NCBI RefSeq assembly: GCF_037902255.1
Contig: NZ_CP147990.1
Location: forward strand, 3,840,001-3,872,000
Reading direction: 5' to 3'
DNA length: 32,000 nt
From: Candidatus Electrothrix sp. GW3-4
Lineage (GTDB): Bacteria > Desulfobacterota > Desulfobulbia > Desulfobulbales > Desulfobulbaceae
Shown: piece after piece, positions 8,643 through 32,000 of the stretch
Position numbering within the stretch: the first letter of the stretch is position 1
How the letters are laid out: every line of letters begins with the position of its first letter
Notes under the pieces: model-generated
The model's input: only the letters and a program-made list of their open reading frames with translations
What the model was told of the DNA's origin: nothing
Database searches by the model: none
Translations under genes and position numbers: made by a program

Positions 8643-9851
8643 TCAATTTGCCTTTTTCCGGATATAGGCAGGCTCATCCCATTCCGCCAGATCATTCTGC
8701 TCATCAAAGATCGGGGTGGGCATAGGACGCAAACCCTTGGGTACCGGATTAGGGCGGGCAAAGCTCGTCGGCTGGTTGGTCGGCGGACGTTCCAGGTCAA
8801 GCCCACCTTTGTCGCTGGCATTGAGCATCTTTACCTTCTTATTATTGGCGCGGCCCACCACGTCAAACTCAGAGATAGTCTCCGCAGAATCCTCAAAATT
8901 GGCAATACCCGTGGCGATCACGGTCACGCGCAACTCATCACCCATATTTTCATCAAACAGGGCGCCGATGATAATATTGGCGTCTTCATGGGCCTTCTCC
9001 TGAATCAGGGCAGAGGCCTCCATAAACTCGCCCATAGTCAACGAACTGGTGGCAGAGATATTGATCAGAATACCCAAGGCACCGTCAATCCCCACATCCT
9101 CCAGCAGCTGATTATCAATGGCTCGCTTAGCAGCCTCGCTGGCCCGATTTTCTCCAGAAGCGGAACCAGAGCCCATGATGGCCGGTCCGACCTCCTTCAT
9201 AACGGTCTTCAGGTCGGCAAAGTCCACATTAATATGGCCAGGCAGATTGATGAGATCGGTAATTCCCTTGACGGCCTGCAGCAGCACATCATCCACCATC
9301 TTCATCATATCAACCAAGGTGGAATTCTTTTGCATAAGGCCCAACAGGCGATCATTGGGGACCGTAATAATGGTATCGGAGTTCTTCTTCAGCTCCTCCC
9401 AACCGGCCTCTGCATTATGCATGCGTTTCTTGGCTTCAAAATAAAAGGGCTTGGTGACCACCGAAACGGTCAGGGCCCCCTGCTCCTTACTGAGCCGGGC
9501 AATAATAGGTGCAGCCCCTGTCCCGGTACCACCGCCAAGACCAGCGGTGACAAAGACCATATCTGCATCAGAGATGGCATTGGCCAGGTCATCCAGACTT
9601 TCCTGGGCCGCATCTCGTCCCATAGCCGGATCAGCCCCGGCCCCCATGCCCTTGGTAATGGTCGGCCCCAGCTGGATACGAATATCCGCTTTGGAGTTCT
9701 CCAGAGCCTGCATATCAGTATTCGCAGCAATAAACTGAACGCCGGTCAGCCGATTATCAACCATGGTGTTAATGGCATTTCCCCCACCGCCACCGACTCC
9801 GATCACCTTGATAGTCGCCACTGACTCTTCTTCTGCCATTCTATATGACAT
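8643..9851 (-). CDS. ftsZ: cell division GTPase FtsZ
   Basis: IKVIGVGGGGGNAINTM, FVTAGLGGGTGTGAAP, NVDFADL, and the C-terminal DEPAYIRKK peptide. The start is placed at the ATG at 9851 (MSYRMAEEE...), preceded by GAGGGGGA. Confidence 0.97.
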   Translation of the reverse strand: MSYRMAEEESVATIKVIGVGGGGGNAINTMVDNRLTGVQFIAANTDMQALENSKADIRIQLGPTITKGMGAGADPAMGRDAAQESLDDLANAISDADMVFVTAGLGGGTGTGAAPIIARLSKEQGALTVSVVTKPFYFEAKKRMHNAEAGWEELKKNSDTIITVPNDRLLGLMQKNSTLVDMMKMVDDVLLQAVKGITDLINLPGHINVDFADLKTVMKEVGPAIMGSGSASGENRASEAAKRAIDNQLLEDVGIDGALGILINISATSSLTMGEFMEASALIQEKAHEDANIIIGALFDENMGDELRVTVIATGIANFEDSAETISEFDVVGRANNKKVKMLNASDKGGLDLERPPTNQPTSFARPNPVPKGLRPMPTPIFDEQNDLAEWDEPAYIRKKAN

Positions 9852-11267: not shown

Positions 11268-11270
11268 AGC

Positions 11271-13217: not shown

Positions 13218-13233
13218 TCCACGCCCATTCTTT

Positions 13234-15837: not shown

Positions 15838-15842
15838 ACAAT

Positions 15843-16043
15843 TTACACGTTAGAAATGGGTAAGATGATATCGCCGAGAACCTTTCCTTTTCCAGCAATA
15901 ACAGGGGACGGCTTTCTTCTCTTTTTACTTTTCTTTTCTGGCATGAGGAAGATAGCCTCCATTCGGACATTCGGTGGTAATTTGGGTTGATTCACCAGCC
16001 TTCCTTGTCGATCTGTTTCAAGGATCATTTTTTTTGCTTGCAT
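15843..16043 (-). CDS. small protein (66 aa), possibly AbrB/VapB-like antitoxin-type; family not firmly recognised
   Basis: Strong SD: GGGAGGA lies 5 nt upstream of the ATG at 16043. The stop is 5 nt before the murG ATG. It has a basic central KKSKKRRK and a C-terminal PSPVIAGKGKVLGDIILP. The antitoxin resemblance is from memory, and no toxin gene is adjacent. Confidence 0.5.
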   Translation of the reverse strand: MQAKKMILETDRQGRLVNQPKLPPNVRMEAIFLMPEKKSKKRRKPSPVIAGKGKVLGDIILPISNV

Positions 16044-16087
16044 GATATCCTCCCTATTTATACATAGAGCAAAAGAGTCAAATTATC

Positions 16088-17266
16088 TTACAAAAACAGA
16101 AGATAAATAGGAACAAGAGATATACTCGTTAAATGCTGCTTCAACACAGCCATTGCAGCACGATCCTTTCCTTGTGCGGGCGTTCCTAAATCCGTCGGCT
16201 CAAGTGTGAACTGATACTCCCCCCACCACGGGCCGCCTGCCCACCACGTCCAGCCAAGCCAGACATCGGAGTTTTCCTCCATGTAGTCGAGCATATTGTC
16301 TATGACCTCATCACCCACATCGTCTGCGGCATCGCCAATTCTGGAATTTGCAACAGCAAACTCACCAAGAAAACCCTTCAGGCCATGCGTTTTCAACCAG
16401 TCAGTAAAATTGGTCAAACGCGTCACACCGATCGTAAGATCGTTATTCGTAATATCGGATGAACCTCCAGAGTAATCATCATCCATATACTGATGCACTT
16501 CAAAGGCAAAATTATTTCCTGAGTCGACAATATTAAGCATATGCTCAGCATTGGCACCATTATACCAGGTTTCATTCCAAGCCCATGCGCCGGACCATTG
16601 ATTGCCTGATACGAGAATCAAATTGCTCGCTCCGGCTGCACGAATAGCGACAATGGCAGCATTCTCAGAAGTAACCAAGTCTGCTGTTTCCATCGTATTC
16701 GGCTCATTCATGAGGCCGAAGATAACCCGAGCATTCCCCTTATAATGGGCAGCAAGTTTACCCCAAAGGTCGGCAAATGCAGTATCCGGGACATCTGACC
16801 CAATTAATCCTTGCGTGGAGCTCTGATGATTATTGGAATCAGGAGAATACCTATGAAAATTATGCGGATCAATAATCACATAGGCTCCTTTTCCTGTGGC
16901 ATAATTGACAAAGGTATCCATACGATTCAATTCATCAGTATCGAAAGCAGCAAACAGAGCCTGTTGGAGCCGTTCCCAGCGAAAGGGCAGACGAAAGGTG
17001 TTCATGCCTTTGCTCATATAATAATCAACCTCCGCAGAGGTTGGGTAGAGGTAGTCGGTTCCGTAAATTCCAGGAAGGTTGACATTGCCATCCCAGACCC
17101 CGAACTCAGCACCGGCTAAATTCACCCCCATGTACTTGAGTCTGGCATGAAGAACTGATGAAGACGACAACAAAAATATGACAGCAATCAAGGACAAGAA
17201 CGATATATCATAACGGCCAGTTGCTTCCACTGATCTCCTCCTTCGCGTATTACATCGTATATCCAT
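16088..17266 (-). CDS. glycoside hydrolase family 5 (endo-beta-1,4-glucanase-like), secreted, 392 aa
   Basis: GVNLAGAEFG, FRLPFRWERLQ, IIDPHNFHRY, GLMNEPN (acid/base Glu), HQYMDDDYSG and GFLGEFAV (nucleophile Glu) occur in canonical GH5 order. The start is moved to the ATG at 17266, giving signal peptide ...ISFLSLIAVIFLLSSSSVLHA. The 77-codon extension in the ORF track overlaps murD. Confidence 0.85.
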   Translation of the reverse strand: MDIRCNTRRRRSVEATGRYDISFLSLIAVIFLLSSSSVLHARLKYMGVNLAGAEFGVWDGNVNLPGIYGTDYLYPTSAEVDYYMSKGMNTFRLPFRWERLQQALFAAFDTDELNRMDTFVNYATGKGAYVIIDPHNFHRYSPDSNNHQSSTQGLIGSDVPDTAFADLWGKLAAHYKGNARVIFGLMNEPNTMETADLVTSENAAIVAIRAAGASNLILVSGNQWSGAWAWNETWYNGANAEHMLNIVDSGNNFAFEVHQYMDDDYSGGSSDITNNDLTIGVTRLTNFTDWLKTHGLKGFLGEFAVANSRIGDAADDVGDEVIDNMLDYMEENSDVWLGWTWWAGGPWWGEYQFTLEPTDLGTPAQGKDRAAMAVLKQHLTSISLVPIYLLFL

Positions 17267-17282
17267 TATACCGCTTGCTGGC

Positions 17283-18665
17283 TCAAGCAAGCAACTGCAC
17301 ACACCGCCCAAACTCCTCCCCCCGCTGCTCATAACTCCTGAACATATCAAAACTGGCGCAGGCCGGGGCCAACAGCGCGGTATTACCTGGAGATGCGGCG
17401 GCAAAGGCCATTGCAACCGCCTCTTCCATATCAGAGGCGAACTGATACCCGACACCAGCTTGCTCGGCAACCGCAGCCAGATCCGAAGCAGATTCACCGA
17501 TCAACACAACATGCTTGACATACTGCCGGAATGCCGGAACCAAGGCTGCAAAATCGCCCCCCTTATTCCTCCCACCAGCAATCAGGACAACCTCCTTGTC
17601 AGCACCCATCCCAAAGCCTGCCAAGGCCGCAACCACGGCCCCCACATTGGTGGCCTTAGAATCGTTGACAAAGCGAACTCCGCTTATCTCACCCACTGGA
17701 GTCATACGATGCTGGGGCGGTTGAAAATCGGTCAGTCCGGCCTTAATATCCTGCTCGTTGCAGCCAAAGGCCCGGACTGCAAGGATAGCCGCAGCGGCAT
17801 TGTACAGATTCACCCTGGAATGCAGCCGGGTCCCTGCAAGCTCGTACAGCTCGCCCGTACCTTCCGGGCCGAAGTCGGGTTCCAAGCGCACAGCCTCTCC
17901 TTCCACCCTGGCACGACAACCGGGCTGGGTACCGAAGCTATACAGTTTTTCGCCAGCAGTGGGCGGTGCAGCCGCAAGCAGAACATCATCCGTCCCGATA
18001 ATCGCGGTATCCCCCCTGCCCTGCCAAACAAACAGCTGCATTTTGGCTGCGGCATATTCCTCAAAACTGCCGTGCCGGTCGATATGATCCGGGGAGAGGT
18101 TGAGGAGCAGGCCGATATCGGGACGAAAATCCCCAGCAGCTTCCAGCTGAAAACTGGACAACTCCAGCACCACGACCTCAGTATTGCCCGGATTCAAAAG
18201 ATATTCCAGAATCGGGGTGCCGATATTGCCACCCACAAAGACCTTCTTGCCGCAACTCCGCAGGAGATGACCGATCAGGCTGGTCACGGTGGTTTTGCCG
18301 TTGGAGCCGGTTACAGCAATCACCGGGACCTGAATACGTCCGGCAGCCAAGGCCAGCTCCCCGCCCACCGGCACACCTCGCGTTCGGGCTGCTGTCAACA
18401 CCGGTAAATCCGCAGGCACACCAGGACTGGGCACGATCAGATCTGCATCGGCAAAAAAAGCAGCCGTATGGCCGCCTGTCTCCAGCCCTACATCGAGATC
18501 TATGCCGTATTGCTCCAGCACAGCCAGCTCTTCCTTTGGGATCTGTTCCCGGAACTCAGAAACCGCGACATCCAATCCCTGTTGGTGCAGATACCGCACT
18601 GCTGCCAGCCCGGATTTTCCCAGGCCAACAACCACAGCCTTCATGCCTGCCTTTAATTCAATCAT
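17283..18665 (-). CDS. murD: UDP-N-acetylmuramoylalanine--D-glutamate ligase
   Basis: VVVGLGKSGLAAVRYL, IAVTGSNGKTTVTSLIGHLL and DSKATN are MurD motifs; 460 aa. Confidence 0.95.
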   Translation of the reverse strand: MIELKAGMKAVVVGLGKSGLAAVRYLHQQGLDVAVSEFREQIPKEELAVLEQYGIDLDVGLETGGHTAAFFADADLIVPSPGVPADLPVLTAARTRGVPVGGELALAAGRIQVPVIAVTGSNGKTTVTSLIGHLLRSCGKKVFVGGNIGTPILEYLLNPGNTEVVVLELSSFQLEAAGDFRPDIGLLLNLSPDHIDRHGSFEEYAAAKMQLFVWQGRGDTAIIGTDDVLLAAAPPTAGEKLYSFGTQPGCRARVEGEAVRLEPDFGPEGTGELYELAGTRLHSRVNLYNAAAAILAVRAFGCNEQDIKAGLTDFQPPQHRMTPVGEISGVRFVNDSKATNVGAVVAALAGFGMGADKEVVLIAGGRNKGGDFAALVPAFRQYVKHVVLIGESASDLAAVAEQAGVGYQFASDMEEAVAMAFAAASPGNTALLAPACASFDMFRSYEQRGEEFGRCVQLLA

Positions 18666-18696
18666 AATTGAGCAACCAAAATAATATTCTCTGGAT

Positions 18697-20553
18697 TCAC
18701 GAGAAAACCTGCTTTTTCTCCAAACTTAATGTCTGCGTTGGCACTAAACCTTGCTGCGGCTGCTGAATAATGCTGATCAGCACGTCCCCGGCCACGGGAT
18801 CTGCCGGACTATCAACAGTGCAGACCTCAATGGAACGATTCGGTTTGAGAACAAACAACACAATTGCGGTTTCACCGTACTCGGCCCTGAAGGCCTGATA
18901 ATCAAACTCCTTGCTCAACTCAGTCAGTTTGATTTTCGGATCACTGCCCAAGACATCGTTGAGCCGAAAATAATCCAGTCCCTTGCCAAAAAGCAGACGG
19001 CCATGCTGCTCCTGCGGAATCGCTTCATGGCGGCTATCCTGCTTCACAGGAGGGAAGGACAACTGGTAGACTTCTTGCCGACCAAAATCTTCCAGAAAAT
19101 GCGAGCAGGTCAAGGCATTGACCGCATCATTGGCTGTCATCGCGAGCATACGGCCCAAGCCGCCGTAATCAATTTCCTCGCGCGTTTTTTTCGCCAAAGC
19201 ACTTCCATAGAGAGCAGGCATACCCGCCATCCGGGAAAGGGTAACATTCTCCCGATCCGTGTCGATCAGCACAACAGAAAAACCTTCATTCATGATCGCC
19301 TGGGCCATGGCCCTTGCCCCTTTATGGGCACCGACAAAAAGAATCCCCTGGGGATTGGCCCGGGACAGACCAAACTTCCGTGACAGCGGAACAGCAGAAA
19401 GGCCATAAATCAACACGGTGGCAAAAACCATCAGGAAGGTGACAGGAACAAGTTCAAGTGCCTGTGGATATCCTTTGGCAGCAAGCTCCAGGGCAAACAC
19501 GGAAGCAACAGCTGCAGCCACGATACCGCGTGGTGCCATCCAGGCCATAAACAGCCGTTCCCGGCAAGGCAATGATGAACCAATTGTGCCCGCCAAAATA
19601 GAGATCGGGCGCACCAGCAAAATCATGAACGCGACAAAGAGAAAGCTGTCCCAACCGAGGCCTCTAATATCTTCCGGCTGAAGACGGGCCGCCAAGATCA
19701 CAAAAAGGCAGGAAATCAGCAGAGTGGTCAAGGTCTCCTTGAATTCAATCACGTGGCGGATGGAAACCCATTGTTGGTTAGCAAGCGTGATCCCCATAAC
19801 CGTCACCGCCAGCAAGCCAGCCTCATCCTGCACCACATTGGCTGCTGCAAAGGAGGCAAACATCAGCATCAGCGATACAGGATTATGCAAGGCATCAGGC
19901 AGCCAAAATTTTCGCAGCACCACGATCAACACCGCAGCGGCAATAAAGCCGAATAACACCCCAACGGCAAAGGTCACGCCGAAATCAATGAGCGCCTCTG
20001 TAAGACCATCACGAAGATCGCTGTGACGCACCACCGTGAAGACCAAGACTGCCAGGGTTGCGCCCAAGGGATCGACAACAATACCTTCCCATTTCAGCAG
20101 CGAACTGACTCGACCGCGCAACCGAAGATGCCGCAACATCGGACCAATAACCGTCGGCCCGGTCACGACAAGAATTGCTGCCAACAAGGCAGAGACCGGC
20201 CAGGGAAAACCAATAATATAGTGAGCGCCAGCCGTGCCGAGTACTAAGGAAAACAGCACGGCAAGGGTCAATATCTGGAATAATACGCCCTGGATTTTTT
20301 GTTTACGCAGTTCCCGAAAACGCAGATTCATACCGCCTTCGTAGAGAATCACCGCAACAGCAAGCGAGACCATAGGGAACAGCAGGTCGCCGAAGAGTTG
20401 GTCAGGATGTAACAGGCCAAGACCAGGCCCGACAACCAGGCCAGCGATCAGCAGGAACAGGATAGAGGGCAGGTGCAGCCTCCATGCTGTCCATTGCGCA
20501 ATAATGCCCAGAATAAAAATTCCGGTAAGTTGCAGTAAGATATCGTGCGACAA
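18697..20553 (-). CDS. CPA1-family cation/proton antiporter with C-terminal TrkA/RCK-like domains (618 aa)
   Basis: The N-terminal region of about 400 aa is multi-TM with NhaP-like segments (LPSILFLLIAGLVVGP, ILYEGGMNL, VVTGPTVIGP). The C-terminal soluble part is a Rossmann-like ILFVGAHKGARAMAQAIMNEGFSVVLID plus a TrkA-C-like tail. Confidence 0.8.
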   Translation of the reverse strand: MSHDILLQLTGIFILGIIAQWTAWRLHLPSILFLLIAGLVVGPGLGLLHPDQLFGDLLFPMVSLAVAVILYEGGMNLRFRELRKQKIQGVLFQILTLAVLFSLVLGTAGAHYIIGFPWPVSALLAAILVVTGPTVIGPMLRHLRLRGRVSSLLKWEGIVVDPLGATLAVLVFTVVRHSDLRDGLTEALIDFGVTFAVGVLFGFIAAAVLIVVLRKFWLPDALHNPVSLMLMFASFAAANVVQDEAGLLAVTVMGITLANQQWVSIRHVIEFKETLTTLLISCLFVILAARLQPEDIRGLGWDSFLFVAFMILLVRPISILAGTIGSSLPCRERLFMAWMAPRGIVAAAVASVFALELAAKGYPQALELVPVTFLMVFATVLIYGLSAVPLSRKFGLSRANPQGILFVGAHKGARAMAQAIMNEGFSVVLIDTDRENVTLSRMAGMPALYGSALAKKTREEIDYGGLGRMLAMTANDAVNALTCSHFLEDFGRQEVYQLSFPPVKQDSRHEAIPQEQHGRLLFGKGLDYFRLNDVLGSDPKIKLTELSKEFDYQAFRAEYGETAIVLFVLKPNRSIEVCTVDSPADPVAGDVLISIIQQPQQGLVPTQTLSLEKKQVFS

Positions 20554-20642
20554 GGTAGACCTCAGATGACCAAATTATTCCTACAGGGTATCCACTGGAG
20601 CATCAGCAAAAAAGGAATGTAGGCCGCCTGGCTCTAGCTTCT

Positions 20643-22598: not shown

Positions 22599-22694
22599 AG
22601 GTATATCTCTTTTTATTGTTTAGCAGTATTGCTAAATGGAACTTTTCTATATCGTTAACGTTGACAAATTGCTGTGGAAAAGATTTCGTTTTAC

Positions 22695-23075
22695 TCAAGA
22701 AGCTCCGCAGTCCTTCAGTAGCTTGCAAATATCAGAAATGATTCTCTCGCGTCTTTTGCTTGATAATGATTTTGTTGAGTATTTATCTTCATCACTTACC
22801 AAGTCACAAGAGTTATACAATTCGACAATCTTCTTCTTGCTCCACCTTTTACGTGTAAATCCAGGTGAAATAAAATTACGCTTTGGTGAGTACCAAAATT
22901 CTTCAGCTGAGAAATCAATGGCCTTAACGATTTCAGAATCTTCTTCTGGTACCGATGTCATACAGCATTTTGCTAATTCTTCGATGTTGAACGCGGCCCT
23001 GAGCTGATCCTTTGAAATCACAATCACAGGGTATACAGGCTCTCTAACACAGATAACAAATTTCTTTTCTTCCAT
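22695..23075 (-). CDS. hypothetical protein (126 aa), AT-rich orphan
   Basis: ORF track. More protein-like than the overlapping plus-strand ORF 22636-23007, and co-directional with its neighbours. No convincing SD and no family recognised. Confidence 0.4.
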   Translation of the reverse strand: MEEKKFVICVREPVYPVIVISKDQLRAAFNIEELAKCCMTSVPEEDSEIVKAIDFSAEEFWYSPKRNFISPGFTRKRWSKKKIVELYNSCDLVSDEDKYSTKSLSSKRRERIISDICKLLKDCGAS

Positions 23076-23269
23076 TTTTTCTGACTGTTACGGATTTAGG
23101 GGAGGGGGGCTCTGATTCGCGGCCCGGCGTTCGGGAAACGCAGCTCAACCCTTCTTTTTCTGATGTTTATTCTTTCTCGTAGTTAATTTGCCGTCTACAT
23201 GGACTGCTCTACAGACATCAACTTGATATTCTAGATTTTTATCACATAAATTCATTTTTCAATCATCAC

Positions 23270-23500
23270 GATTAAAATTGAAATCAGCATATTTTACGCT
23301 TCAATCGGCCTGATGTACATTTAAATCACTCTGATTCACATTTAAATCGCCTTGATTGAAGTGTAACTTGGCTTGATGCAAGTTTAAAATGGATCAATTC
23401 AAATTGGAATCGTCTTAATTCCAATCGAAATCGGGGTGATTCAAATTGACATCGGGTCAATTCCAATTGACTTTGGAACGATGCAAACGGCAAATCCTTG
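23270..23500. repeat. 11 x 21-bp perfectly phased degenerate tandem array, consensus about GATTCAAATTnAAATCGnnnT
   Basis: Hand-parsed units, each exactly 21 bp: gattaaaattgaaatcagcat / attttacgcttcaatcggcct / gatgtacatttaaatcactct / gattcacatttaaatcgcctt / gattgaagtgtaacttggctt / gatgcaagtttaaaatggatc / aattcaaattggaatcgtctt / aattccaatcgaaatcggggt / gattcaaattgacatcgggtc / aattccaattgactttggaac / gatgcaaacggcaaatccttg. Stop codons occur in all the frames I checked, and no ORF of 60 aa or more is present. Confidence 0.85.
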
Positions 23501-23523
23501 CCGTCAAGGAGGCAACCATCCGG

Positions 23524-23688
23524 TCACTCCAACTTTTGGAGATTTTCCCGCTGGACATATCGTATACCAATATCGCCATCATCGTCCGCTTCAATCTTTA
23601 CCCTTTTTTCTGTGAATCCTAAAACCTTCCCCGATACAGGATACACATAATCACCACCGGGTATGCGCTTGGTTCTAACTTCGGCCAA
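23524..23688 (-). CDS. possible small ORF (54 aa, TTG start)
   Basis: The minus-strand frame continuing after the TAG of the transposase-like ORF reads LAEVRTKRIPGGDYVYPVSGKVLGFTEKRVKIEADDDGDIGIRYVQRENLQKLE*. It looks protein-like, but it has a non-ATG start and no SD, is below the ORF-track cut-off, and overlaps the left inverted repeat. Confidence 0.2.
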   Translation of the reverse strand: MAEVRTKRIPGGDYVYPVSGKVLGFTEKRVKIEADDDGDIGIRYVQRENLQKLE

Positions 23689-24967
23689 TTCCCTCTAAGC
23701 GGCCATCGCCAAACGATTTCTTGGACGTGGCGGATAATCCATATTATTCAAGAGGTGCTCAAGAAGATTTCCATGTTCGGCCTCGAAAAACCTCAAAGCA
23801 GGGGTGGTATTATCCTCTCGTTTGATATGAACATTATGGATTACCGTCTGTGCCTGTAAATGTGAATCGCTCAGCCTATGTATTCCGTGATGTCGAAGTG
23901 ACAACTGAGCGTTTCTTCCCTTGACACAGGAACTTGACCTCTGGAAAAATTGAGCGCACTCTTTAGCGCTTTGTATCAGGGATGCCGTTTTTTCTGGATT
24001 GATCCCTGATATCAATCCGTCGTGTTGACCGATAATTGAAAGTAGTTCGGCTGATTGCTGTTGAATCAGCTCCTTTCTGACCTTATCCTTTTCTTTTTCC
24101 GCAACGAAAGAAAGATAGAAACCGGGAATCAGTCGATCCTTCAGCAGTATTTTTTCTTCACCGGAAAAATCTTTATTTTCGAGATGTTGATCCACCATTG
24201 TCCAAAAGAAGGCTATGGTGGAAACTAAATTGGCCACAACCTTATACGCTTTTTTTACATGATCGCGACATTTCCCGGAAAGACCGGCTGCCGCTTTATT
24301 TATTTCGGAAAAGCAGGAGTCCAGGAGGCTCTCTACCGTAGAAGGGTCCTGCCTTTCTCCTGTTATGGGATCATAAGGGTGATAAATATGCCCGATCCTC
24401 TTTCTCGCCGCACAGATGGTTTCCTGGTTTTCACGAGCTTTCAGCAGTTCCGCCTCCGCACTTTTTCTTTGTTTTTCAGCAAGGTTAACCTTTTTTGCAA
24501 AACCCGGTCTCCTGCCTCTCGGGCGACGCTCCCGTGAATCGTAACAATGCATTTCTTCTTTTATTTTATCTGCTTATTTCTCTGCTTATTTCTCTGCCGA
24601 TTGAAAAGCTTTTTCCGCTCTTCTGATCTTCGAAGCAAGCGGCCCGGAAGTTCCTTTGCCTATATCGTGAGATACATGAAAAATATCCGACGAATGATGA
24701 ACCCCTTTATCGAGGAATGAAGCCGGTTGTGATTATTTCCTCTTACTTTATCTGGAGAAATTTGATATTGCGTGGCCATAGCTGCTTGTTTTTGTTGGTT
24801 TGTTCTTTGGTTGGGAAAAACCTAATACAAAATCAAGCAGCTTTCATCTATCTTATTCTTCTAAAAAAATATTTTTTTCACAGGCCACTTTCTCCAAAAA
24901 ATAGAAAGCTCCAAGAGGATTGAGCTGTACTTTGGCAGTACAATATTGGCCGAACTTAGAACCAAGC
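23667..24967 (-). mobile_element. IS-like element remnant (1301 bp) bounded by 23-bp imperfect inverted repeats
   Basis: Left gcttggttctaacttcggccaat (23667-23689) versus the reverse complement of 24945-24967, gcttggttctaagttcggccaat: 22/23 identical. Both read inward. The element encloses the transposase-like ORF. I saw no flanking direct repeat. Confidence 0.45.
23695..24552 (-). pseudogene. transposase-like protein, apparently the C-terminal portion only (285 aa)
   Basis: FQRSSSCVKGRNAQLSLRHHGIHRLSDSHLQAQTVIHNVHIKREDNTTPALRFF resembles the C-terminal SSxxEGxNxxL...HN...R.DG.T.A.RFF signature of some DDE-transposase-associated families. I recall DUF6399-type annotations but cannot verify that. 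The about 390 bp between its start and the right IR holds only short broken frames on the same strand (e.g. MATQYQISPDKVRGNNHNRL..., ...GKGTSGPLASKIRRAEKAFQSAEK*). Confidence 0.45.
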
Positions 24968-25059
24968 CCTTAATTTTATCAGCTTGTTTTTCATCAAGCT
25001 GATACTCTATTCGCAATTACAGCATGTTGAAAGGGAAATTTTATAATTTCCTATACAGT

Positions 25060-25120: not shown

Positions 25121-26536
25121 TTATTTCTTGTCGTCCTTCTTGCTCTCCTGCCCACCCCCTAACACCGTGTACAGGCTAACCTGATTGGCCAACCGGGCCA
25201 GACGAAGGGAGATCACGGCCTGCTGCTGGCCATAGAGGGAGCGGTGGGCATCCAGCACACTGAGGTAGCTGTCCAGCCCCATGGTATAGCGTTTATCCGA
25301 GAGCTCATAGGTGGCCTGGGCTGATTCCACCAGGGCCTCCTGGGCAGCCAGCTGCTCGCTGATCGTGCCCTGCACGGCCAAGGCATCTGCCACCTCCTGA
25401 AAGGCGGTCTGCACGGTCTTTTCATACTGGGCTAACAGGATCTTCTGATCTATCTTACTGATCTTCAACGCCGACCAGACCCGGCTGTCAAAGATGGGGA
25501 TCTGGACCTCCGGGACAAAGCTCCAGATCCCGGTACCAGAGCTGAACAACCTGCCCAAATCATCACTGGCCGTACCTGCGGAGGCGGTCAGCGAGATCCG
25601 GGGAAAGACCGCAGCCCGGGCTGCGCCAATAGAGGCATAGGCCCCCTTAAGCTTATGCTCTGCTGCCACAATATCCGGCCGATTGAGCAGCACCACTGAA
25701 GGCAGGCCAGGATCGATCTCCTTGAGCGCAGCCACAGAGTTCAATTGATCGGGAAGGAATTTTCCCGGCACCGGCGCACCGACCAGCAGGTTCAGGGCAT
25801 TCCGATCCTGGGCCACCATCTGAGTGAAGCGGGGCACATCCCGCCGGGCCGCCTCCACCTCGGTCCGGGCCCGACGCAGATCAAGCTCAGTGGCCAAGCC
25901 GTTTTCATAGCTCTTACCGATCAGGTCATACGAGTCCTGCTGACTCTTGAGCGTCGCCTGGGCCAGTTTGAGGTTTTCCTGGTCTGCAGCCAGAGTGAGA
26001 TAGGCCGTGGCCACTTGGCTGATCAGGACCAGCTCCGCGCTGCGGTGGGCCTCCTCAGTGGCCAGATATTCCTCCAGGGCCTGATCGGTCAGGCTACGGA
26101 TGCGACCAAAGAAGTCCAGCTCCCAGGAGGGAATCTCCGCCTTGAGGCTATACTTCTCGCTGGAGCGTGGCTGGCCTTGTTCGACCAGGTCAGCAGAGAA
26201 GCGTTGTTTATCCAGGCTGCCGCTCCCATCAACAGCGGGAAAGATACCGGTGCGGTGCACGCCGTACATGGCCTGGGCCCGTTCCACATTCAGGGCCGCC
26301 ACCCGCAGATCGCGGTTATTGGCCAAGGCCAGCTTGATGACCTTACGCAGCTTGGCATCGCTAAAAAACTCCTGCCAGGAAATACCTCTGATCTGTTCCC
26401 CTTGCTGCTCCTTATAGGCATCGCCCTGGGGCCATTCTGCCGGAACCGGGTCTTTCGGTCGCTCATATTGGGGGGCCATGGTGCAGCCACCAGACAAAAG
26501 CAGGGTGGCCAGGGCCAGAATCTGTAGCTTGTTCAT
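25121..26536 (-). CDS. RND efflux outer-membrane factor lipoprotein (NodT family)
   Basis: Lipobox LLLSGG|C, and two TolC-like repeats with typical NNRDLRVA and LDLRRARTEVEAAR helices; 471 aa. Its start overlaps the RND pump stop by 4 nt (ATGA). Confidence 0.9.
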   Translation of the reverse strand: MNKLQILALATLLLSGGCTMAPQYERPKDPVPAEWPQGDAYKEQQGEQIRGISWQEFFSDAKLRKVIKLALANNRDLRVAALNVERAQAMYGVHRTGIFPAVDGSGSLDKQRFSADLVEQGQPRSSEKYSLKAEIPSWELDFFGRIRSLTDQALEEYLATEEAHRSAELVLISQVATAYLTLAADQENLKLAQATLKSQQDSYDLIGKSYENGLATELDLRRARTEVEAARRDVPRFTQMVAQDRNALNLLVGAPVPGKFLPDQLNSVAALKEIDPGLPSVVLLNRPDIVAAEHKLKGAYASIGAARAAVFPRISLTASAGTASDDLGRLFSSGTGIWSFVPEVQIPIFDSRVWSALKISKIDQKILLAQYEKTVQTAFQEVADALAVQGTISEQLAAQEALVESAQATYELSDKRYTMGLDSYLSVLDAHRSLYGQQQAVISLRLARLANQVSLYTVLGGGQESKKDDKK

Positions 26537-29500
26537 GCGGACTGTACCTCCGGTTTGTTGGGAGCATCAAGTTTCTTTGCAGGCTGCTGCTTATCCTTTT
26601 TTCCGCCAAAGAGCTGGGAGACCAGGACAAAGAAGAGCGGGATAAAGATCAGATCGATAAAGGTGGCCGAGAGCATCCCACCGCAGACCGCTGTGCCCAG
26701 GGCATTCATCGCCCCTGCGCCTGCGCCCCCGGCAACGGCCAGGGGCAGGACGCCAAAGAAGAAGGCCAGGGAGGTCATCATGACTGGCCGAAACCGGGTC
26801 TTGACCGCATCCAGGGTGGCCTCGGTCAGGCCCTGGCCCACGGCCAGCCGTTCCTTGATGAACTGGATGATCAGAATGGCGTTCTTGGTGGACAGCCCCA
26901 TAGTCGTCAAAAAGCCGATCTGGAAATAGACATCATTGGGCATACCGCGCAGCGAAGAGGCAACAATGGCCCCGAACACCCCCAGCGGCAACATCAACAG
27001 GTTGGCAAAAGGGATGGTCCAGCTCTCGTACAGGGCGGCCACGCAGAGGAAGATGACAAAGATAGAAAAGGCGTAGAGGATCGGCCCCTGCTTGGTGGCC
27101 ATTTTCTCCTGATAAGAGAGACCGCTCCAGTCAAAGCTGATGCCCTGCGGCAACCTGCTCACCAGCTCCTCCATGGCTGCCATGGCCTCACCGGTACTGT
27201 GACCAGGTGCAGGCTGTCCCTGGATATTCATGGACGGAAAGGCATTATAGCGTTGCAGCGATGGTGACCCGAGGCTCCAACGGCCTGTGGCAAAGGCGGA
27301 AAAGGGCACCATCTTACCTTCCGTATTACGGACATAGAGCCGTTCCATGTCCTGAGGCAGGCGACGATAGGAGGCATCGGCCTGGACATAGACCTTTTTG
27401 ACCCGGCCTGCCTGGATGAAGTCGTTGACGTAGCTGCTGCCAAAGGCGGTGGCCAGGGTGCTGTGGATGGAACTGAGCGGCACACCCAAGGCACCGGCCC
27501 GGTCCCAATTCACGTCCACCCGGTATTCCGGGGTGTCCATCATCCCGTTGGGCCGAACCCCCATCAGACGTGGATCCTGGGCCGCCATCCCCAACAGCTG
27601 GTTACGGGCTGCGGCCAACTTCTCATGGCCCAGACCGCCCCGGTCCTGAAGCTGAAAATCAAAACCATTCGCCATACCCAATTCGATTACCGGCGGCGGC
27701 GGAAAGGCAAAGACCATGGCCTCCTTGATCTGGGACAGGGCCCCCATGGCCCGGCCAGCAATGGGCTTGACCTTGAGGTCCGGTCGCTGCCGTTCCTCCC
27801 AGTCCTTGAGTTTGATAAAGCACATGGCCAGATTCTGGCCCTGGCCGCTGAAGTTACGGCCGGAGATGGTCATGGCGTTCTTGACCGCCTCTGCTTCGTG
27901 CTCCAGGAAGTAGTTGCGCACCTTGGTCACCACCGCCTCGGTCTGCTCCAGGGTGGAACCGGGAGGCAGCATGATCTGGACCAACACCATACCTTGGTCC
28001 TCGTCCGGGATATAGGAGGTGGGCATCCGCTGCAGGAGAAATCCGGCCAAAGCCAGAATCAACAGGTAACAGACCAGGAAGAGGGCCTTGGTACGCAGGG
28101 AAAAGGCGACAAAGCGCACGTAGAGGCTGCGGATGCCGCCGAAGAAGAACTCGAACACGGCAAAGAAGGGGCGCATAAAGAAGATGGCGTTTTCCGACGG
28201 CGCATGTCCGGCCTTGACCGGTTTCAGGAAGGAGGCGCAGAGGACCGGAGTGAGGATCAGAGCCACCAGCACGGAGAGGAGCATAGCCGTAATCAGGGTG
28301 ACAGAGAACTGGCGGTAGAGGACCCCCGTAGAGCCGGGGAAAAAGGCCATGGGCCCGAAGACGGCGGACAGGACCAGGCCGATCCCGATCAGGGCACTGG
28401 TGATCTCGTCCATGGACTTAGCTGTGGCCTCCTTGGGCGGCAGGCCCTCCTCACTCATGATCCGCTCCACGTTCTCCACCACCACAATGGCATCGTCCAC
28501 CAAGAGACCGATAGCCAGGACCATGGCAAACATGGTCAGCATGTTGACCGAATACCCCGCAAAACCGAGCACGGCAAAGGTGCCCAACAGGACCACAGGC
28601 ACGGCAATGGTGGGAATAATCGTCGCCCGAATATTACCCATGAACACGTACATGATGATGAAGACCAGGATAATGGCCTCGAACAGGGTCTTGATCACCT
28701 CATCAATGGAGACCTTGGTAAAGGGGGTGGTGTCGTAGGGATAGATCACCTTCATGCCCGGCGGAAAGAACCGGCTCATCTCCTCCAGCTTCTCCTTGAT
28801 CGCCGTGGCCGTTTCCAGGGCATTGGCTCCGGCAGCCTGGCGCACCGCCATCCCAGCGGCAGGCCTGCCATTGCTCTTGACGATGGAGTCGCTGCGCTCA
28901 ATGGCCAGCTCAGCCCGACCGATATCCTTAATTCGCACGGCAGAGCCGTCCTGATTGATGCGGATGGGCACCTCGGTAAATTCTTCCGGTGTTTCGAGAA
29001 GGTGCTGGACCACAATGGGCGCGTTGAGCCGCTGCCCCTCTGCGGCTGGCGTACCACCCAGCTGGCCAGCAGAGACCTCTACGTTATAGGAGCGCAGGGC
29101 CGCCATTACATCGGCAAAGGTGAGGCTGTAGCTGGTCAGTTTGTCCGGGTTGATCCAGATCCGCATGGCATACTGGGAACCAAAGGGCTGCACCTCACCG
29201 ACCCCGGGAATCCGGGCCAGGACTTTTTCCAGATTGGATTGGGCATAGTCCTGGAGGTCGTTGCTGTCCATGCTGCCGTTTTCCGAGATCAGGGCCGGGA
29301 TGAGCAACCAGTTACGGGTGGACTTGCTCACCTGCACCCCGGAGCGCTGGACCACATCCGGCAGGCTGGCCAGGGCCAGCTGGAGCTTGTTCTGCACCTT
29401 GGCCCAGGCCAGATCCGGATCAGTGCCAGCGGCAAAGGTCAGCTCCACCCGAGAGGAACCCGAGGACGAGCTGCTGCCGGAGAGGTAGATCATATCGTCC

Positions 29501-29718
29501 AGCCCGGTCATCTTCTGTTCCACGATCTGGGTGACCGTATTCTCCACGGTCTCCGCAGATGCGCCGGGAAAGAAGGCATCAATGGCAATGGCGGGTGGGG
29601 CAATAGGTGGATACTGGGCAATGGGCATCTGGTGGATAGCCAGTGCGCCCAGCGTCATGATAATAATGGCAATAACCCAGGCAAAGACGGGTCGGTCAAG
29701 AAAAAATTTCGAGAGCAT
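26533..29718 (-). CDS. RND multidrug efflux permease (HAE1, AcrB/MexB-like), 1061 aa
   Basis: MLSKFFLDRPVFAWVIAIIIMTLGALAI..LPIAQYP, GLLVDDAIVVVENVERIM and KNAILIIQF are classic AcrB-family segments. Expected 12-TM architecture and length. Confidence 0.97.
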   Translation of the reverse strand: MLSKFFLDRPVFAWVIAIIIMTLGALAIHQMPIAQYPPIAPPAIAIDAFFPGASAETVENTVTQIVEQKMTGLDDMIYLSGSSSSSGSSRVELTFAAGTDPDLAWAKVQNKLQLALASLPDVVQRSGVQVSKSTRNWLLIPALISENGSMDSNDLQDYAQSNLEKVLARIPGVGEVQPFGSQYAMRIWINPDKLTSYSLTFADVMAALRSYNVEVSAGQLGGTPAAEGQRLNAPIVVQHLLETPEEFTEVPIRINQDGSAVRIKDIGRAELAIERSDSIVKSNGRPAAGMAVRQAAGANALETATAIKEKLEEMSRFFPPGMKVIYPYDTTPFTKVSIDEVIKTLFEAIILVFIIMYVFMGNIRATIIPTIAVPVVLLGTFAVLGFAGYSVNMLTMFAMVLAIGLLVDDAIVVVENVERIMSEEGLPPKEATAKSMDEITSALIGIGLVLSAVFGPMAFFPGSTGVLYRQFSVTLITAMLLSVLVALILTPVLCASFLKPVKAGHAPSENAIFFMRPFFAVFEFFFGGIRSLYVRFVAFSLRTKALFLVCYLLILALAGFLLQRMPTSYIPDEDQGMVLVQIMLPPGSTLEQTEAVVTKVRNYFLEHEAEAVKNAMTISGRNFSGQGQNLAMCFIKLKDWEERQRPDLKVKPIAGRAMGALSQIKEAMVFAFPPPPVIELGMANGFDFQLQDRGGLGHEKLAAARNQLLGMAAQDPRLMGVRPNGMMDTPEYRVDVNWDRAGALGVPLSSIHSTLATAFGSSYVNDFIQAGRVKKVYVQADASYRRLPQDMERLYVRNTEGKMVPFSAFATGRWSLGSPSLQRYNAFPSMNIQGQPAPGHSTGEAMAAMEELVSRLPQGISFDWSGLSYQEKMATKQGPILYAFSIFVIFLCVAALYESWTIPFANLLMLPLGVFGAIVASSLRGMPNDVYFQIGFLTTMGLSTKNAILIIQFIKERLAVGQGLTEATLDAVKTRFRPVMMTSLAFFFGVLPLAVAGGAGAGAMNALGTAVCGGMLSATFIDLIFIPLFFVLVSQLFGGKKDKQQPAKKLDAPNKPEVQSA

Positions 29719-29752
29719 CAGGAGCTCCTTTCAGTGCTTGTCTGGAATGGGA

Positions 29753-29771
29753 ATGAACCTCTGAGGTTCAT
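29753..29771. promoter_or_regulatory. 19-bp perfect palindrome ATGAACCTC-T-GAGGTTCAT upstream of the RND pump RBS
   Basis: Arms 29753-29761 / 29763-29771 were checked by eye. It lies 35 nt upstream of the pump ATG (29718), whose SD AAGGAG is at about 29724-29729. Confidence 0.3.
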
Positions 29772-29872
29772 CCTGTTTTTTATTGGGCAGACACGCAGGT
29801 CTGCCCCTTGTATTATAAAATTGCTCCGATGTGCTGCGTTCTTCCTGCCGTCAAAGGCGAAAAACAGCAACC

Positions 29873-30100
29873 AAGGATGGTTTTATCGATGTTGAGGGCC
29901 GAAGAACGGCCCCGCAGGGCGGTTCAACGGCTCTCGGGTGCCGTTGAAGCATACCAGAGGTATGGTTTTATCTATCGGCGGATAGGCTGAACCATACCCA
30001 GGGATACCTTTTACCTCTCGCCGGATAGGTCGAACCATACCCGAGGTATGGTTTTTCCTCTCAGCGGAGAGCTTGAAGGTATCCGGTGAGAGGTTCTTGA
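29873..30100 (-). repeat. Dispersed structured repeat, composite copy B (core 29989-30042)
   Basis: GGTATGGTT lies at 29959-29967 and 30045-30053, and AACCATACC at 29990-29998 and 30033-30041. This includes a perfect hairpin AACCATACC-CGA-GGTATGGTT (30033-30053). An internal direct repeat tcg(g/c)cggatagg(ctg/tcg)aaccataccc is 22/25 identical, at 29975-29999 and 30018-30042. The core is 44/54 identical to 305-358 in inverted orientation. Confidence 0.6.
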
Positions 30101-30134
30101 GAATCTTGTATAGGGGTAATCACTCAACTCTTTC

Positions 30135-31493
30135 TCAATGCCCTGCCCCATCCTTCTTTGGTGGAGCACCACCACCCTGCGGTTTCGCACCAAAAGGCGT
30201 GGCATTGACCACCGTGCCGGGACGGAGCATCAGCAGGCCCTCGACAATCACCTTGTCGCCTGGCGCAAGTCCTTTCGTAACCAGCCATTTATCCTCAATG
30301 GCCCGCTCCAGGACCAAGGGCCGATATTCGGCCTTGCTCTCCCCACTGACCACCAGGGCAAAGGGATCACCCTTGGAGTTACGGGACACGCCCTGCTGTG
30401 GCACCATAAGGGCCTGCTCCCGGACCCCCTCCTGGATCACGGTACGGACAAACATACCCGGCAGGAGTATCCGATCCGGATTAGGAAAAACCGCCCGCAG
30501 GGTGACAGAGCCCGTAGTCGGATCAACAGTCACATCACTGAACTGGAGGGTACCGTCCTGCGGATAAGCAGTGCCGTCTTCCAGCAGGAGTTTCACTGTA
30601 TTTTGCTCCTCACCCCCCTCTTGCAGACCCTCATTTCGCAAAGAAAGCATCTTGGTTGCTGCCTGGGGCACATCGGCATAGATGGGATCCAGTTGTTGGA
30701 TAATGGACAGTGGCCTCGCCTGATAGGCCGTGACCACGGCCCCTTCGGTCACGTTAGAGATGCCGATCCGACCCGAGATCGGGGCGGTGACCTTGGTGTA
30801 GCCAAGATTGATCCGGGCGGTCTTCACTGCCGCCTCTGCCTGCTGGACTGCGGCCTGGGCAGCGGCAATTGCACTGCGGCTGCTCTCCACCTGGGCTTGG
30901 GCGGATGCCAAGTCAGCCTCGGCCACAACAGCCCCGGTTGCGGCTTGATCGCGCTGGGCCGCAGAGACGATCTTTTGCTTAAAGGACTGCTCATAGCGTT
31001 TACTGTCAGATTGGGCCAGGGAAAGCTTGGCCTTGATCCGACCGATATCTGCCTGACTCGCTCTCAGTGCAGCTTTGGCTCGGTCCACCGCCTTTTTTGA
31101 GGCCAAAAGATTAGCTTCGGCATTATCCAGGGCGGCCTGAAAGGAAGACGGATCAAGCCGGTAGAGGATATCACCTGCCTTGACATCAGATCCCTCTGTA
31201 AAAAGGCGTTCCAGGATAATACCACTGACCTGGGGACGAATCTCTGCGGTGCGGAAGGCCGAGGTACGGCCTGGCAACTCGTTGGTCAACACGACCTGCT
31301 GCGGCTGCATGGTAATAAAAGACACGGCCGGGGCTGGCCGCTGGTGCCCTGCACCCTGCTGTTCCTTCTTTCCTGCAAACAGACCGGTCAGCTTGTGCAG
31401 CCAACCAGCCTGCTGCCCTTGCTCACAGCCGGACAGGAAAAGGCCAGCGAACAGGGCCAGGAACAAGAGGCTCCATGTACGTACAGTCTTCAT
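30135..31493 (-). CDS. RND efflux periplasmic adaptor (membrane fusion protein), lipoprotein, 452 aa
   Basis: Lipobox FLSG|C. It has the coiled-coil hairpin (AALDNAEANL...AQAQVESSRSAIAAAQAAVQQAEAAVKTARINLGYTKVTAPISGRIG) and beta-barrel segments typical of AcrA/MexA-type MFPs. Confidence 0.9.
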   Translation of the reverse strand: MKTVRTWSLLFLALFAGLFLSGCEQGQQAGWLHKLTGLFAGKKEQQGAGHQRPAPAVSFITMQPQQVVLTNELPGRTSAFRTAEIRPQVSGIILERLFTEGSDVKAGDILYRLDPSSFQAALDNAEANLLASKKAVDRAKAALRASQADIGRIKAKLSLAQSDSKRYEQSFKQKIVSAAQRDQAATGAVVAEADLASAQAQVESSRSAIAAAQAAVQQAEAAVKTARINLGYTKVTAPISGRIGISNVTEGAVVTAYQARPLSIIQQLDPIYADVPQAATKMLSLRNEGLQEGGEEQNTVKLLLEDGTAYPQDGTLQFSDVTVDPTTGSVTLRAVFPNPDRILLPGMFVRTVIQEGVREQALMVPQQGVSRNSKGDPFALVVSGESKAEYRPLVLERAIEDKWLVTKGLAPGDKVIVEGLLMLRPGTVVNATPFGAKPQGGGAPPKKDGAGH

Positions 31494-31514
31494 AGTTACT
31501 CCAGGTAATATTCT

Positions 31515-32000
31515 TTATATATCAGAAGTGGTAGAGGCTTCAGGTGCCAAGAGCCCCTGAAAGAAAATATCCAAAATAGTATCCGGGGAGGTGGGATAGG
31601 AATCCCTCCTTTCCAGCCAATTAGAGAGAAAGGCATTACAGAGGCTATCCATTGCCAGGGCCAGGTGACAGGGCGTGGCAATCTGCTGAAAGCGCCCCTT
31701 CTCCATCCCCTGGGCAAAAACAGCAGCAACACGTTGGATCATCTGATGATGCCGCTCCCGCAACTCTTTGTCCAGGCCCGCCTTAATATTAAAGCTTGCC
31801 CCCCGTGTTTCAGCAAAATAGAGGCGGATAAAGGTGTCGTTACTCATAAAGACCTCTCCCTTGACCCGGATGTACGTGCGCAACTGCTCAATCTCGTCTT
31901 CTGATGAACCCAGGGCTGCGCTCAGGGCCTGATGGAACCGCTCTGCCTGTTCGGTAATCAGGGCCTTGTACATATCTTCCTTGTTTTTGAAAAACTTGTA
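31515..32000 (-). CDS. TetR/AcrR-family regulator, C-terminal part; continues off the right edge
   Basis: The frame stays open to the window edge. The reverse complement of the last bases reads YKFFKNKEDMYKALI..., the end of a TetR HTH (FxxKEDLY). It is followed by a helical ligand-binding-type domain. The stop is 21 nt before the MFP start. Confidence 0.8.
   Translation of the reverse strand, partial: YKFFKNKEDMYKALITEQAERFHQALSAALGSSEDEIEQLRTYIRVKGEVFMSNDTFIRLYFAETRGASFNIKAGLDKELRERHHQMIQRVAAVFAQGMEKGRFQQIATPCHLALAMDSLCNAFLSNWLERRDSYPTSPDTILDIFFQGLLAPEASTTSDI

Follow-up and report, generated by a model that had tools for sequence, protein, structure and literature searches.

The window analysed here is a 32-kb stretch of the genome of Candidatus Electrothrix sp. 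GW3-4 that carries one half of the dcw (division and cell wall) gene cluster, in which the position normally held by ftsW is occupied by other genes. In the canonical cluster, as in E. coli and the 13 outgroup loci described below, the order is mraZ-rsmH-ftsL-ftsI-murE-murF-mraY-murD-ftsW-murG-murC-(ddl/murB)-ftsQ-ftsA-ftsZ. All listed features of the window lie on the minus strand and, read from 22.6 down to 8.6 kb, follow the order YjdM/PhnA, orf208, ZIP, antiporter, murD, GH5 (glycoside hydrolase family 5), orf66, murG, murC, murB, ftsQ, ftsA and ftsZ (Table 1). Translations and Pfam matches bore out the section from the antiporter to ftsZ, which had been proposed in an initial annotation. 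Ten proteins encoded in the window are identical at every residue to GenBank entries for GW3-4. The 31 nucleotides (nt) that it counted between the antiporter stop codon (18697) and the first murD ATG (18665) are also correct, and become 52 nt with the start that a different gene caller assigned to a 453-residue MurD. Like the canonical cluster, GW3-4 keeps murG to ftsZ as a contiguous, co-oriented block in the usual order, and the other half is kept as a block on a separate contig. Unlike it, GW3-4 has no ftsW, its murE and murF are fused, accessory genes lie on both sides of murD, mraY is not immediately upstream of the murD in the window, and about 619 genes separate the two halves. At the protein level MurD is 84–91% identical to other Electrothrix MurD sequences and the antiporter is 90–95% identical across Electrothrix species. 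Subsets of the antiporter, ZIP, orf208 and YjdM genes recur in synteny in most species of the genus.

Table 1 Features of the GW3-4 window (window coordinates, listed from the ftsZ end)
Feature	Coordinates	Strand	Identification
ftsZ	8643..9851	-	Far end of the dcw half kept here; identical to WYD83651 ('cell division protein FtsZ')
ftsA	9969-11267	-	Translation; Pfam FtsA/SHS2_FTSA on the identical L036 gene
ftsQ	11271-12206	-	Translation; Pfam POTRA_1/FtsQ on the identical L036 gene
murB	12267-13220/13289	-	Pfam MurB_C and FAD_binding_4
murC	13234-14616	-	Pfam Mur_ligase, Mur_ligase_M and Mur_ligase_C
murG	14740-15837	-	Pfam Glyco_transf_28 and Glyco_tran_28_C; WYD83656
orf66 (66 amino acids)	15843-16043	-	Small conserved open reading frame, antitoxin-like reading
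GH5 (380 amino acids)	16088-17230	-	PF00150, E=2.9e-53; 100% match to WYD83658
Window-specific linker	17164..17298	-	No DNA homology to other Electrothrix loci
murD	17283-18665	-	Pfam MurD-like_N, Mur_ligase_M and Mur_ligase_C
CPA1 cation/H+ antiporter	18697-20553	-	Na_H_Exchanger and TrkA_N
ZIP transporter	20643-21458	-	Pfam
orf208 (208 amino acids)	21521-22147	-	No family assignment
YjdM/PhnA zinc ribbon	22257-22598	-	Pfam
orf126 (126 amino acids)	22695-23075	-	Inside the breakpoint interval
21-nt tandem repeat array	about 23261-23480		Inside the breakpoint interval
DUF6399 reading frame	23695-24552	-	Pfam; inside the breakpoint interval
TetR-HlyD-AcrB-TolC efflux operon	25121..32000	-	Pfam; continues to glnA on L030

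For comparison we used loci from E. marina (L001), E. laxa (L004), E. gigas (L006), E. aarhusensis (L007) and the complete chromosome of E. scaldis (L032), further loci referred to by number, two contigs of the GW3-4 sample (L041 and L030), and a Logan assembly of run SRR28154588 (L036). The last of these, assembled with a different pipeline, matches window positions 6088–23104 (17,017 nt) at 100% identity, a span that covers both insert junctions and the junction between the antiporter and murD. The order murD-GH5-murG recurs on the E. scaldis chromosome, and L002, L003 and L033 independently link GH5 to murD and/or murG. The initial annotation had allowed for an assembly error at the junctions. 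Chimeric joins at about 15838, at about 17282 or between the antiporter and murD are very unlikely because L036 reproduces every one of them at 100% identity; no point in favour of such an artefact was found, and we give it practically no weight.

It is clear that the window holds no ftsW. A six-frame scan of positions 15838–17282 for hydrophobic segments returned no open reading frame (ORF) with more than one (controls: nine in FtsW and twelve in the antiporter), confirming the earlier observation that nothing with the multi-spanning character of FtsW/RodA lies there. Tblastn searches with FtsW and with MraY (three queries each, from canonical outgroup clusters) gave no match anywhere in the 32 kb. 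GH5 accounts for the only Pfam match inside the murD–murG interval of the window, and neither dcw half of GW3-4 has a SEDS gene within it or nearby.

A scan for MurD with one genome per species yielded 29 loci, whose context was examined over ±10 kb. The outgroup loci derive from Desulfobacterales, Syntrophales, Desulfuromonadales and unclassified 'Deltaproteobacteria', and only those spanning the interval were counted. Thirteen of them (L012–L015, L017–L024 and L026) have an ftsW between murD and murG, 46–55% identical, and a fourteenth (L029) has a frameshifted copy split over two frames. The exception among loci of other orders is that of an Oscillospiraceae member (L025). Within ±10 kb of murD, ftsW is missing from seven of seven Electrothrix loci and from L008–L011, two of which are labelled Desulfurivibrionaceae; taking in the loci added to the scan, it was not found in L001–L011, L032, L033, L036 or L038–L040. 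Desulfolithobacter dissulfuricans, Desulfogranum mediterraneum and a relative with an 82%-identical MraY have the order mraY-murD-murG without ftsW, their murD and murG overlapping or lying about 200–320 nt apart. In some ftsW-less Desulfobulbales loci the two genes abut or enclose only a Cys-rich ORF of 62–74 residues. Absence of ftsW, zipA and ftsN has been reported for two Electrothrix and two Desulfobulbus genomes, in which ftsW was not detected and the mre cluster contained rodA (Geerlings et al. 2021, Front Microbiol 12:620807, PMC7873302).

These comparisons indicate that ftsW was lost before the insert arrived and independently of it, as an old trait of the Desulfobulbales sampled, because the slot is empty of ftsW even in Desulfobulbales loci that have no insert. 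The insert would then have entered a junction already without ftsW, and therefore did not replace it. The earlier proposal that horizontally acquired DNA had displaced ftsW does not survive this comparison, since the slot lacks ftsW in all Desulfobulbales loci examined; the missing gene is shared by the relatives as an old lineage trait, and was described in print in 2021.

The small Cys-rich ORF that fills the ftsW slot in non-cable Desulfobulbales carries the motif CCxC-x17-19-HGYCPxCF, overlaps the murD stop codon and abuts the murG start. It was located at L038:10494-10715, L039:10513-10737, L008:2840-3025, L009:11420-11605 and L010:1385-1570. Its family comprises 56 clusters, all 'hypothetical' and without a Pfam domain, with named members in Desulfogranum, Desulfolithobacter, Desulfurivibrio and Thiovibrio; it occurs neither in the window nor in any Electrothrix locus examined. 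We considered whether it might be a remnant of FtsW and rejected this, as the predicted protein is soluble, not hydrophobic, and has no similarity to FtsW. In a separate feature of the upstream half, every Desulfobulbales locus that covers murE and murF has them as a single fused gene of 1010–1033 codons (L037:6907-9996, L038:4804-7905, L039:4959-7994, L040:6966-9998 and L041:6898-9996). Fused genes are marked in Table 2 of Geerlings et al. 2021 (PMC7873302).

In Electrothrix the gap between murD and murG measures 1.2–5.4 kb and its cargo is different in every species. The shortest gaps, of 1.2 kb, hold one unassigned 331-residue gene in E. marina and GH5 only in E. scaldis, and the 1.4-kb gap of the window holds GH5 and orf66. 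The interval measures 3.9 kb in E. aarhusensis (a PDC-S15/FRG protein, orf66 with a PIN toxin, and a fused HEC-01A/B), 4.3 kb in E. gigas (a complete Gabija pair and orf66), 4.9 kb in L003 (the 331-residue gene, a 161-residue gene, a HEC-01A-like ATPase and GH5) and 5.4 kb in E. laxa (a PDC-M34B HEPN protein, a DDE insertion sequence (IS) and a disrupted HEC-01). PADLOC identified GajA (9e-212) and GajB (1e-176) in E. gigas, HEC-01A/B (4e-141 and 4e-72) and PDC-S15 (2e-61) in E. aarhusensis, and PDC-M34B in E. laxa. The interval between mraY and murD behaves in the same manner: its cargo across loci includes HigBA (in L002 and L005), Shedu SduA (1e-103 in E. aarhusensis), Hhe (E=0 in L005), a type IIG restriction–modification gene (6e-72 in E. 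gigas), YjdM, ZIP, the antiporter, a transglutaminase and an IS. Over nine Electrothrix loci we counted at least six cargo sets at the murD–murG junction and as many at mraY–murD, and every cargo gene called, in all loci and both intervals, points in the dcw direction. PADLOC gave no match for the genes in the two intervals of the window. In E. marina (L001:1104-3491) the murD reading frame runs through a stretch of 10 A into the downstream 331-residue gene, giving a 795-residue ORF that probably reflects a frameshift or an error in homopolymer length and not a true fusion.

The comparison thus shows both junctions flanking murD to be integration and replacement hotspots in Electrothrix, filled in the relatives mostly with defence and toxin–antitoxin cargo. 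In E. coli and other pangenomes, conserved core genes can flank integration hotspots and defence islands. The Electrothrix junctions resemble these in their conserved flanks, species-specific cargo, defence systems in the relatives and, beside mraY, in GW3-4 itself (a retron), and occasional IS elements. They differ in lying inside an essential and normally invariant operon and in the common orientation of all cargo, and the cargo of the window itself is not defence-related.

The insert of the window had drawn attention through its base composition, given as about 40% GC against about 65% for murD and murG. It is lower than its flanks, but the figures overstated the difference, the measured values being 45.3% for the insert, 57.6% for murD and 54.1% for murG. 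In 300-nt windows the insert ranges from 41 to 49% GC. The 32-kb window as a whole averages 51.2% (s.d. 6.0), 18% of equal-length windows are at or below the value of the insert, and several other accessory genes are lower still. The insert is 9–12 points below its flanks but within 1 s.d. of the window mean, a GC content that is unremarkable for the window. The lowest GC of the window (37.6%, and 32.5% at third codon positions) belongs to a 393-residue ORF at 3965–5146, which has no Pfam match and adjoins an omptin-family gene downstream of ftsZ and a radical SAM gene.

GH5 is not private to GW3-4. Its module (window 16080–17163) is common to L002, L003 and E. scaldis, with nucleotide identities of 77–79% in the first two and about 84% in the third, and five genomes have a GH5 gene at this site, namely GW3-4, E. 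scaldis, L033, L002 and L003. At the protein level these copies are 77–84% identical to that of the window, compared with 88–91% for MurD and 82–86% for MurG in the same loci. The corresponding gap holds no GH5 in E. marina, E. laxa, E. gigas or E. aarhusensis. A 65%-identical copy is encoded in an unrelated neighbourhood in Ca. Electronema halotolerans. Outside the cable bacteria, the nearest homologues among the matches listed are 72–74% identical, including a partial 'Desulfobacterales bacterium' entry, P0025 (73%), and Planctomycetes proteins of about 60% identity come next after P0025 among the organism-named homologues listed.

The view of GH5 as a recent arrival is not supported by these data: four other assemblies (E. 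scaldis, L002, L003 and L033) have it at the same site with 77–84% amino acid identity. Since several Electrothrix genomes share it here, GH5 appears to have been inherited or exchanged within the genus and not recently acquired from outside. Nor need it be foreign at all, because the 65%-identical copy elsewhere in the Ca. Electronema genome makes relocation within the lineage as plausible as a foreign origin. A recent horizontal transfer in this genome, in which low-GC foreign DNA took the place of ftsW, would be in keeping with an insert 9–12 GC points under its flanks, with the lack of ftsW, and with Planctomycetes (about 60%) having the closest organism-named homologues of GH5 outside the cable bacteria and Desulfobacterales among the matches listed. 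We nonetheless regard it as highly improbable, given that the published absence of ftsW extends to every Desulfobulbales slot examined, including those without an insert, that GH5 has diverged between assemblies to a similar degree as the genes flanking it, that a related copy exists elsewhere in Ca. Electronema, and that the GC content of the insert is normal for the window.

The GH5 gene starts at the GTG at 17230, behind an AGGAGG, which gives the 380-residue protein annotated by NCBI. An exact-protein look-up with an upstream ATG as the start came back empty, as did one with a 460-residue MurD, to which the other gene caller gives 453 residues. The PF00150 match scores 181.6 bits against a cutoff of 23.5 and covers profile positions 16–271 of 272, and the N-terminus reads like a signal peptide, ending ...LHA/R. 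The protein aligns over its full length with PDB entries 5hnn and 4w7u (E about 1e-82; range over GH5 structures 3e-82 to 6e-33). The solved enzymes that it resembles are 5hnn, 5hpc and 4w7u (each 'Cellulase'), 9p41 ('Endoglucanase Cel5A'), 1gzj ('EGI') and 3qr3 ('Endoglucanase EG-II'). In GH5 enzymes the glutamate of the NEP motif is the acid/base and that of the GEF motif the nucleophile. In the window protein these motifs read GLMNEPN and FLGEFA, and they line up with their counterparts in 5hnn. We therefore predict a secreted GH5 endo-beta-1,4-glucanase with intact catalytic motifs. Unlike many Planctomycete homologues it has no carbohydrate-binding or dockerin domain, and unlike the solved GH5 enzymes it has a short hydrophobic C-terminal tail and is encoded between murD and murG. 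The tail (window 16088–16130) reads ...SLVPIYLLFL, its L003 counterpart ...SLAPLFLLLL, and some more distant homologues carry a PEP-CTERM (PF07589) or dockerin (PF00404) domain at the C-terminal end; a degenerate sorting signal is one possible reading of the tail.

Given this prediction, GH5 might have been recruited as a division-coupled periplasmic glycanase that is expressed together with murD and murG and remodels a beta-glucan of the shared cable-bacterial envelope. The intact motifs and the signal-peptide-like N-terminus would suit such a role, as would the persistence of GH5 in this gap in five genomes amid turnover of the neighbouring cargo, and its tight packing without a predicted terminator (in E. 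scaldis and L003 its stop codon lies 8–9 nt from the murG ATG). However, E. marina, E. laxa, E. gigas and E. aarhusensis do not have it in this position and so do not need it there for division. The Ca. Electronema copy stands in an unrelated context, and a literature search linked no cellulase to cable-bacterial division. On balance we consider recruitment improbable.

The stop codon of orf66 lies 5 nt before the murG ATG. The reading frame is intact, with 80–94% amino acid identity in four species, and its module (window 15865–16058) is common to L002, E. gigas and E. aarhusensis at 84–86% nucleotide identity. Searches of Pfam (E<=5), NCBIfam (E<=0.1) and PADLOC gave no match for orf66. In E. 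aarhusensis only, a PIN-domain gene (PF01850, E=3e-15) overlaps the 3′ end of the orf66 homologue, so that the pair has the antitoxin-then-toxin order of a VapBC type II toxin–antitoxin system. Unlike VapBC, no PIN gene follows orf66 in the window, L002 or E. gigas, murG follows it directly in the window, and orf66 matches no antitoxin family. With moderate confidence we assign orf66 as a putative orphan antitoxin.

The boundaries of the insert are sharp. DNA homology among all Electrothrix loci ends at window 17299, 16 nt short of the murD stop codon, which leaves the final five murD codons cargo-specific, and it resumes at window 15845, 8 nt before the murG ATG. Between these points the insert is a mosaic in which the GH5 and orf66 modules are joined by short window-specific linkers. 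The linker at 17164–17298 contains the last five murD codons, a 7-bp hairpin over the murD stop, a ribosome-binding site and the signal-peptide coding region of GH5. No flanking repeat, recombinase or second murG 5′ copy was found in the insert of the window. Repeats resembling attachment (att) sites or transposon ends were sought around it and occurred only at chance level, including a 12-nt inverted repeat flanking GH5 that is close to chance expectation.

In two relatives, E. aarhusensis and L002, duplications of the 5′ end of murG, 83–260 nt long, flank the cassettes. The first 73–83 nt of murG are present in three copies in E. aarhusensis and in at least two in L002, and every additional copy is followed by an identical conserved stretch of 45 nt and then by the beginning of the HEC-01A gene. 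In E. aarhusensis two direct repeats, each of about 260 nt and 84% identical to the other (L007:12375-12634 and 13326-13585), bracket the orf66–PIN pair, and the same unit occurs at L002:14411-14670. We set aside the reading of these copies as att sites, since the repeats of about 260 nt take in the 5′ end of HEC-01A; because they contain part of a cargo gene, duplication by homology (a Campbell-type single crossover) fits better. IS elements were found in E. laxa and E. scaldis, and a fragment of an rve transposase in L041. In E. laxa (L004:12697-12728 and 14393-14514) a DDE_5 IS interrupts the 5′ end of HEC-01A, and its flanks overlap by about 9 nt of the uninterrupted sequence in what looks like a target-site duplication.

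We propose that cargo is mainly swapped by double-crossover allelic replacement in the conserved murD 3′ and murG 5′ flanks, that occasional single-crossover (Campbell-type) integration would leave the murG 5′ duplications, and that IS activity would also feed the turnover. The alternative, in which an element integrates site-specifically at the first ~75–83 nt of murG and restores them, has several observations behind it, namely the extra copies of murG nt 1–83 in E. aarhusensis and L002, each with the same 45 nt and the start of HEC-01A, the 260-nt direct repeat bracketing orf66–PIN, and homology boundaries at identical nucleotides in all species. Yet no integrase or recombinase is encoded in any cargo between murD and murG, where the sole mobility gene is the secondary DDE IS of E. 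laxa. A repeat unit that includes part of a cargo gene suits a Campbell-type crossover better than an att site, the window has neither a murG 5′ copy nor flanking repeats, and fixed boundaries may simply mark the point at which murD and murG cease to be under purifying selection. We consider such an element unlikely.

Selection may retain only inserts that are co-oriented, tightly packed and free of terminators. In the ancestral arrangement of non-cable Desulfobulbales, murG overlaps or abuts its upstream gene, and other inserts would not survive because murG is essential and was, as we infer, ancestrally translationally coupled to that gene. No terminator-like site was found in the intergenic spacers of the insert. 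The terminator scan performed no better than on shuffled sequence, and an Rfam scan of 14.5–25.2 kb gave no match. The insert is probably read through from murD into murG.

Upstream of murD, the synteny with other species breaks. In most other Electrothrix species mraY lies 1–8 kb upstream of murD on the same strand. The interval from 22.6 to 32 kb of the window contains no mraY, murF or murE, and holds the RND efflux operon and the DUF6399 ORF instead; a walk further upstream on L030 reached glnA and not mraY. In GW3-4 the murD-side proteins are numbered WYD83651–83668 (FtsZ WYD83651, MurG WYD83656, HlyD WYD83668), with AcrB (WYD83667) adjacent, and MraY is WYD84278, about 619 genes from murD. 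The E. scaldis MurD (WPD23209) and MraY (WPD23217) are 8 accession numbers apart, and its AcrB (WPD23864) is 655 genes from murD. Likewise, the E. aestuarii MurD (XCN74177) and MraY (XCN74185) are 8 accession numbers apart and AcrB (XCN74904) is 727 genes from murD. On L041, from the same sample as the window, mraZ-rsmH-ftsL-ftsI-murEF-mraY is kept as a block. The earlier deduction that the upstream half must be encoded elsewhere in GW3-4 was thus correct, both by accession and by its presence on a separate contig.

The window is syntenic with the E. scaldis dcw region starting at about 22628, and with the E. scaldis RND region from the end of the window to about 25055. The breakpoint interval, 22629..25054, contains orf126, the 21-nt repeat array and the DUF6399 ORF. 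While the break in synteny is evident, what produced it is deduced from gene order: a rearrangement spanning some 620 genes, with its breakpoint in the mraY–murD hotspot, would have moved mraZ–mraY off and brought in the RND efflux operon. A simple inversion would predict that the E. scaldis DNA beyond TolC matches the DNA after the GW3-4 mraY, and no homology was found between them.

The 21-nt array consists of about ten degenerate repeats (...GATT-CAAT...; TRF rows 23303–23357 and 23387–23470) and is kept in other Electrothrix mraY–murD intervals (L003:732-1041 and L006:6904-7117). GW3-4 has a second copy of window 23372–23670 at L041:12995-13293, 85% identical, so that one copy lies on each side of the split. 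The array could bind protein or be the substrate on which the rearrangement recombined. Next to mraY on its downstream side, GW3-4 has a gene (L041:11277-12923) for a type XI retron reverse transcriptase–protease fusion (PADLOC, 1.4e-181), followed by the rve transposase fragment and a gene of more than 1171 codons for an SpvB/TcdB-type toxin. L037 (Logan, SRR34468995) is an Electrothrix-like contig whose MraY shares 93% identity with the E. scaldis protein. Its dcw cluster is broken after mraY, beyond which lie unrelated genes on the opposite strand, for RibF, carboxylase subunits and a Na/Pi cotransporter. It is a second and apparently independent split, and such splits may recur.

Taken together, we consider with a probability of roughly 0.78 that three events of different ages shaped the dcw region of GW3-4. 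The first would be an ancient loss of ftsW that left an ancestral junction in which murD and murG abutted or enclosed the small Cys-rich ORF. In the second, within Electrothrix, the mraY–murD and murD–murG junctions became hotspots, the latter now holding GH5 and orf66 in GW3-4. In the third, a rearrangement in GW3-4 would have split the cluster.

Several points weigh against this reconstruction. The context of ftsW was covered here over ±10 kb per locus, and its absence beyond that relies on Geerlings et al. 2021. For the hotspots the argument comes wholly from relatives, because the window insert has no defence or mobility gene and no att-like or flanking repeat. The recombination mechanism is itself deduced, with the site-specific route as the less favoured explanation of the murG 5′ duplications. 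Co-transcription is suggested solely by packing, orientation and the lack of predicted terminators, and a promoter dedicated to GH5 is possible: the linker peculiar to the window includes a perfect TATAAT (17270–17265) and a weak -35 element (TTGCTT) at an 18-nt spacing, a promoter-like arrangement whose consensus match is below the scan threshold. The gene distances assume that GenBank accessions are numbered along the genome. Finally, the reciprocal junction of the rearrangement was not recovered, and the event may be either an inversion or a translocation.

A bolder reading is that in FtsW-less cable bacteria the dcw operon serves as a protected landing pad, with accessory and defence genes inserting only co-directionally on both flanks of murD and riding on dcw transcription, and GH5 domesticated as a division-coupled enzyme that acts on a beta-glucan of the shared filament envelope. 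This we regard as quite improbable; linked to it is the possibility that the Cys-rich protein of non-cable Desulfobulbales is an undescribed division factor.

The lack of ftsW and the insertion of genes around murD are already published for a sister species, and the present work mostly adds detail. The Electrothrix and Desulfobulbus clusters described by Geerlings et al. 2021 (PMC7873302) are alike in both respects; in that study the inserted genes were not identified, species were not compared and E. marina could not be assessed. The present work adds the identity of the cargo, the hotspot behaviour with strict co-orientation over at least nine genomes, the duplicated 5′ ends of murG, the Cys-rich ORF that occupies the ancestral slot and the physical split of the GW3-4 cluster. 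The weightier question is how Desulfobulbales build a septum without FtsW, which this window does not make more testable. The dcw cluster is among the most conserved of bacterial gene arrangements, and a lineage without ftsW, with kilobases of shifting cargo and one split cluster, is a natural experiment on how much operon integrity is needed for division.

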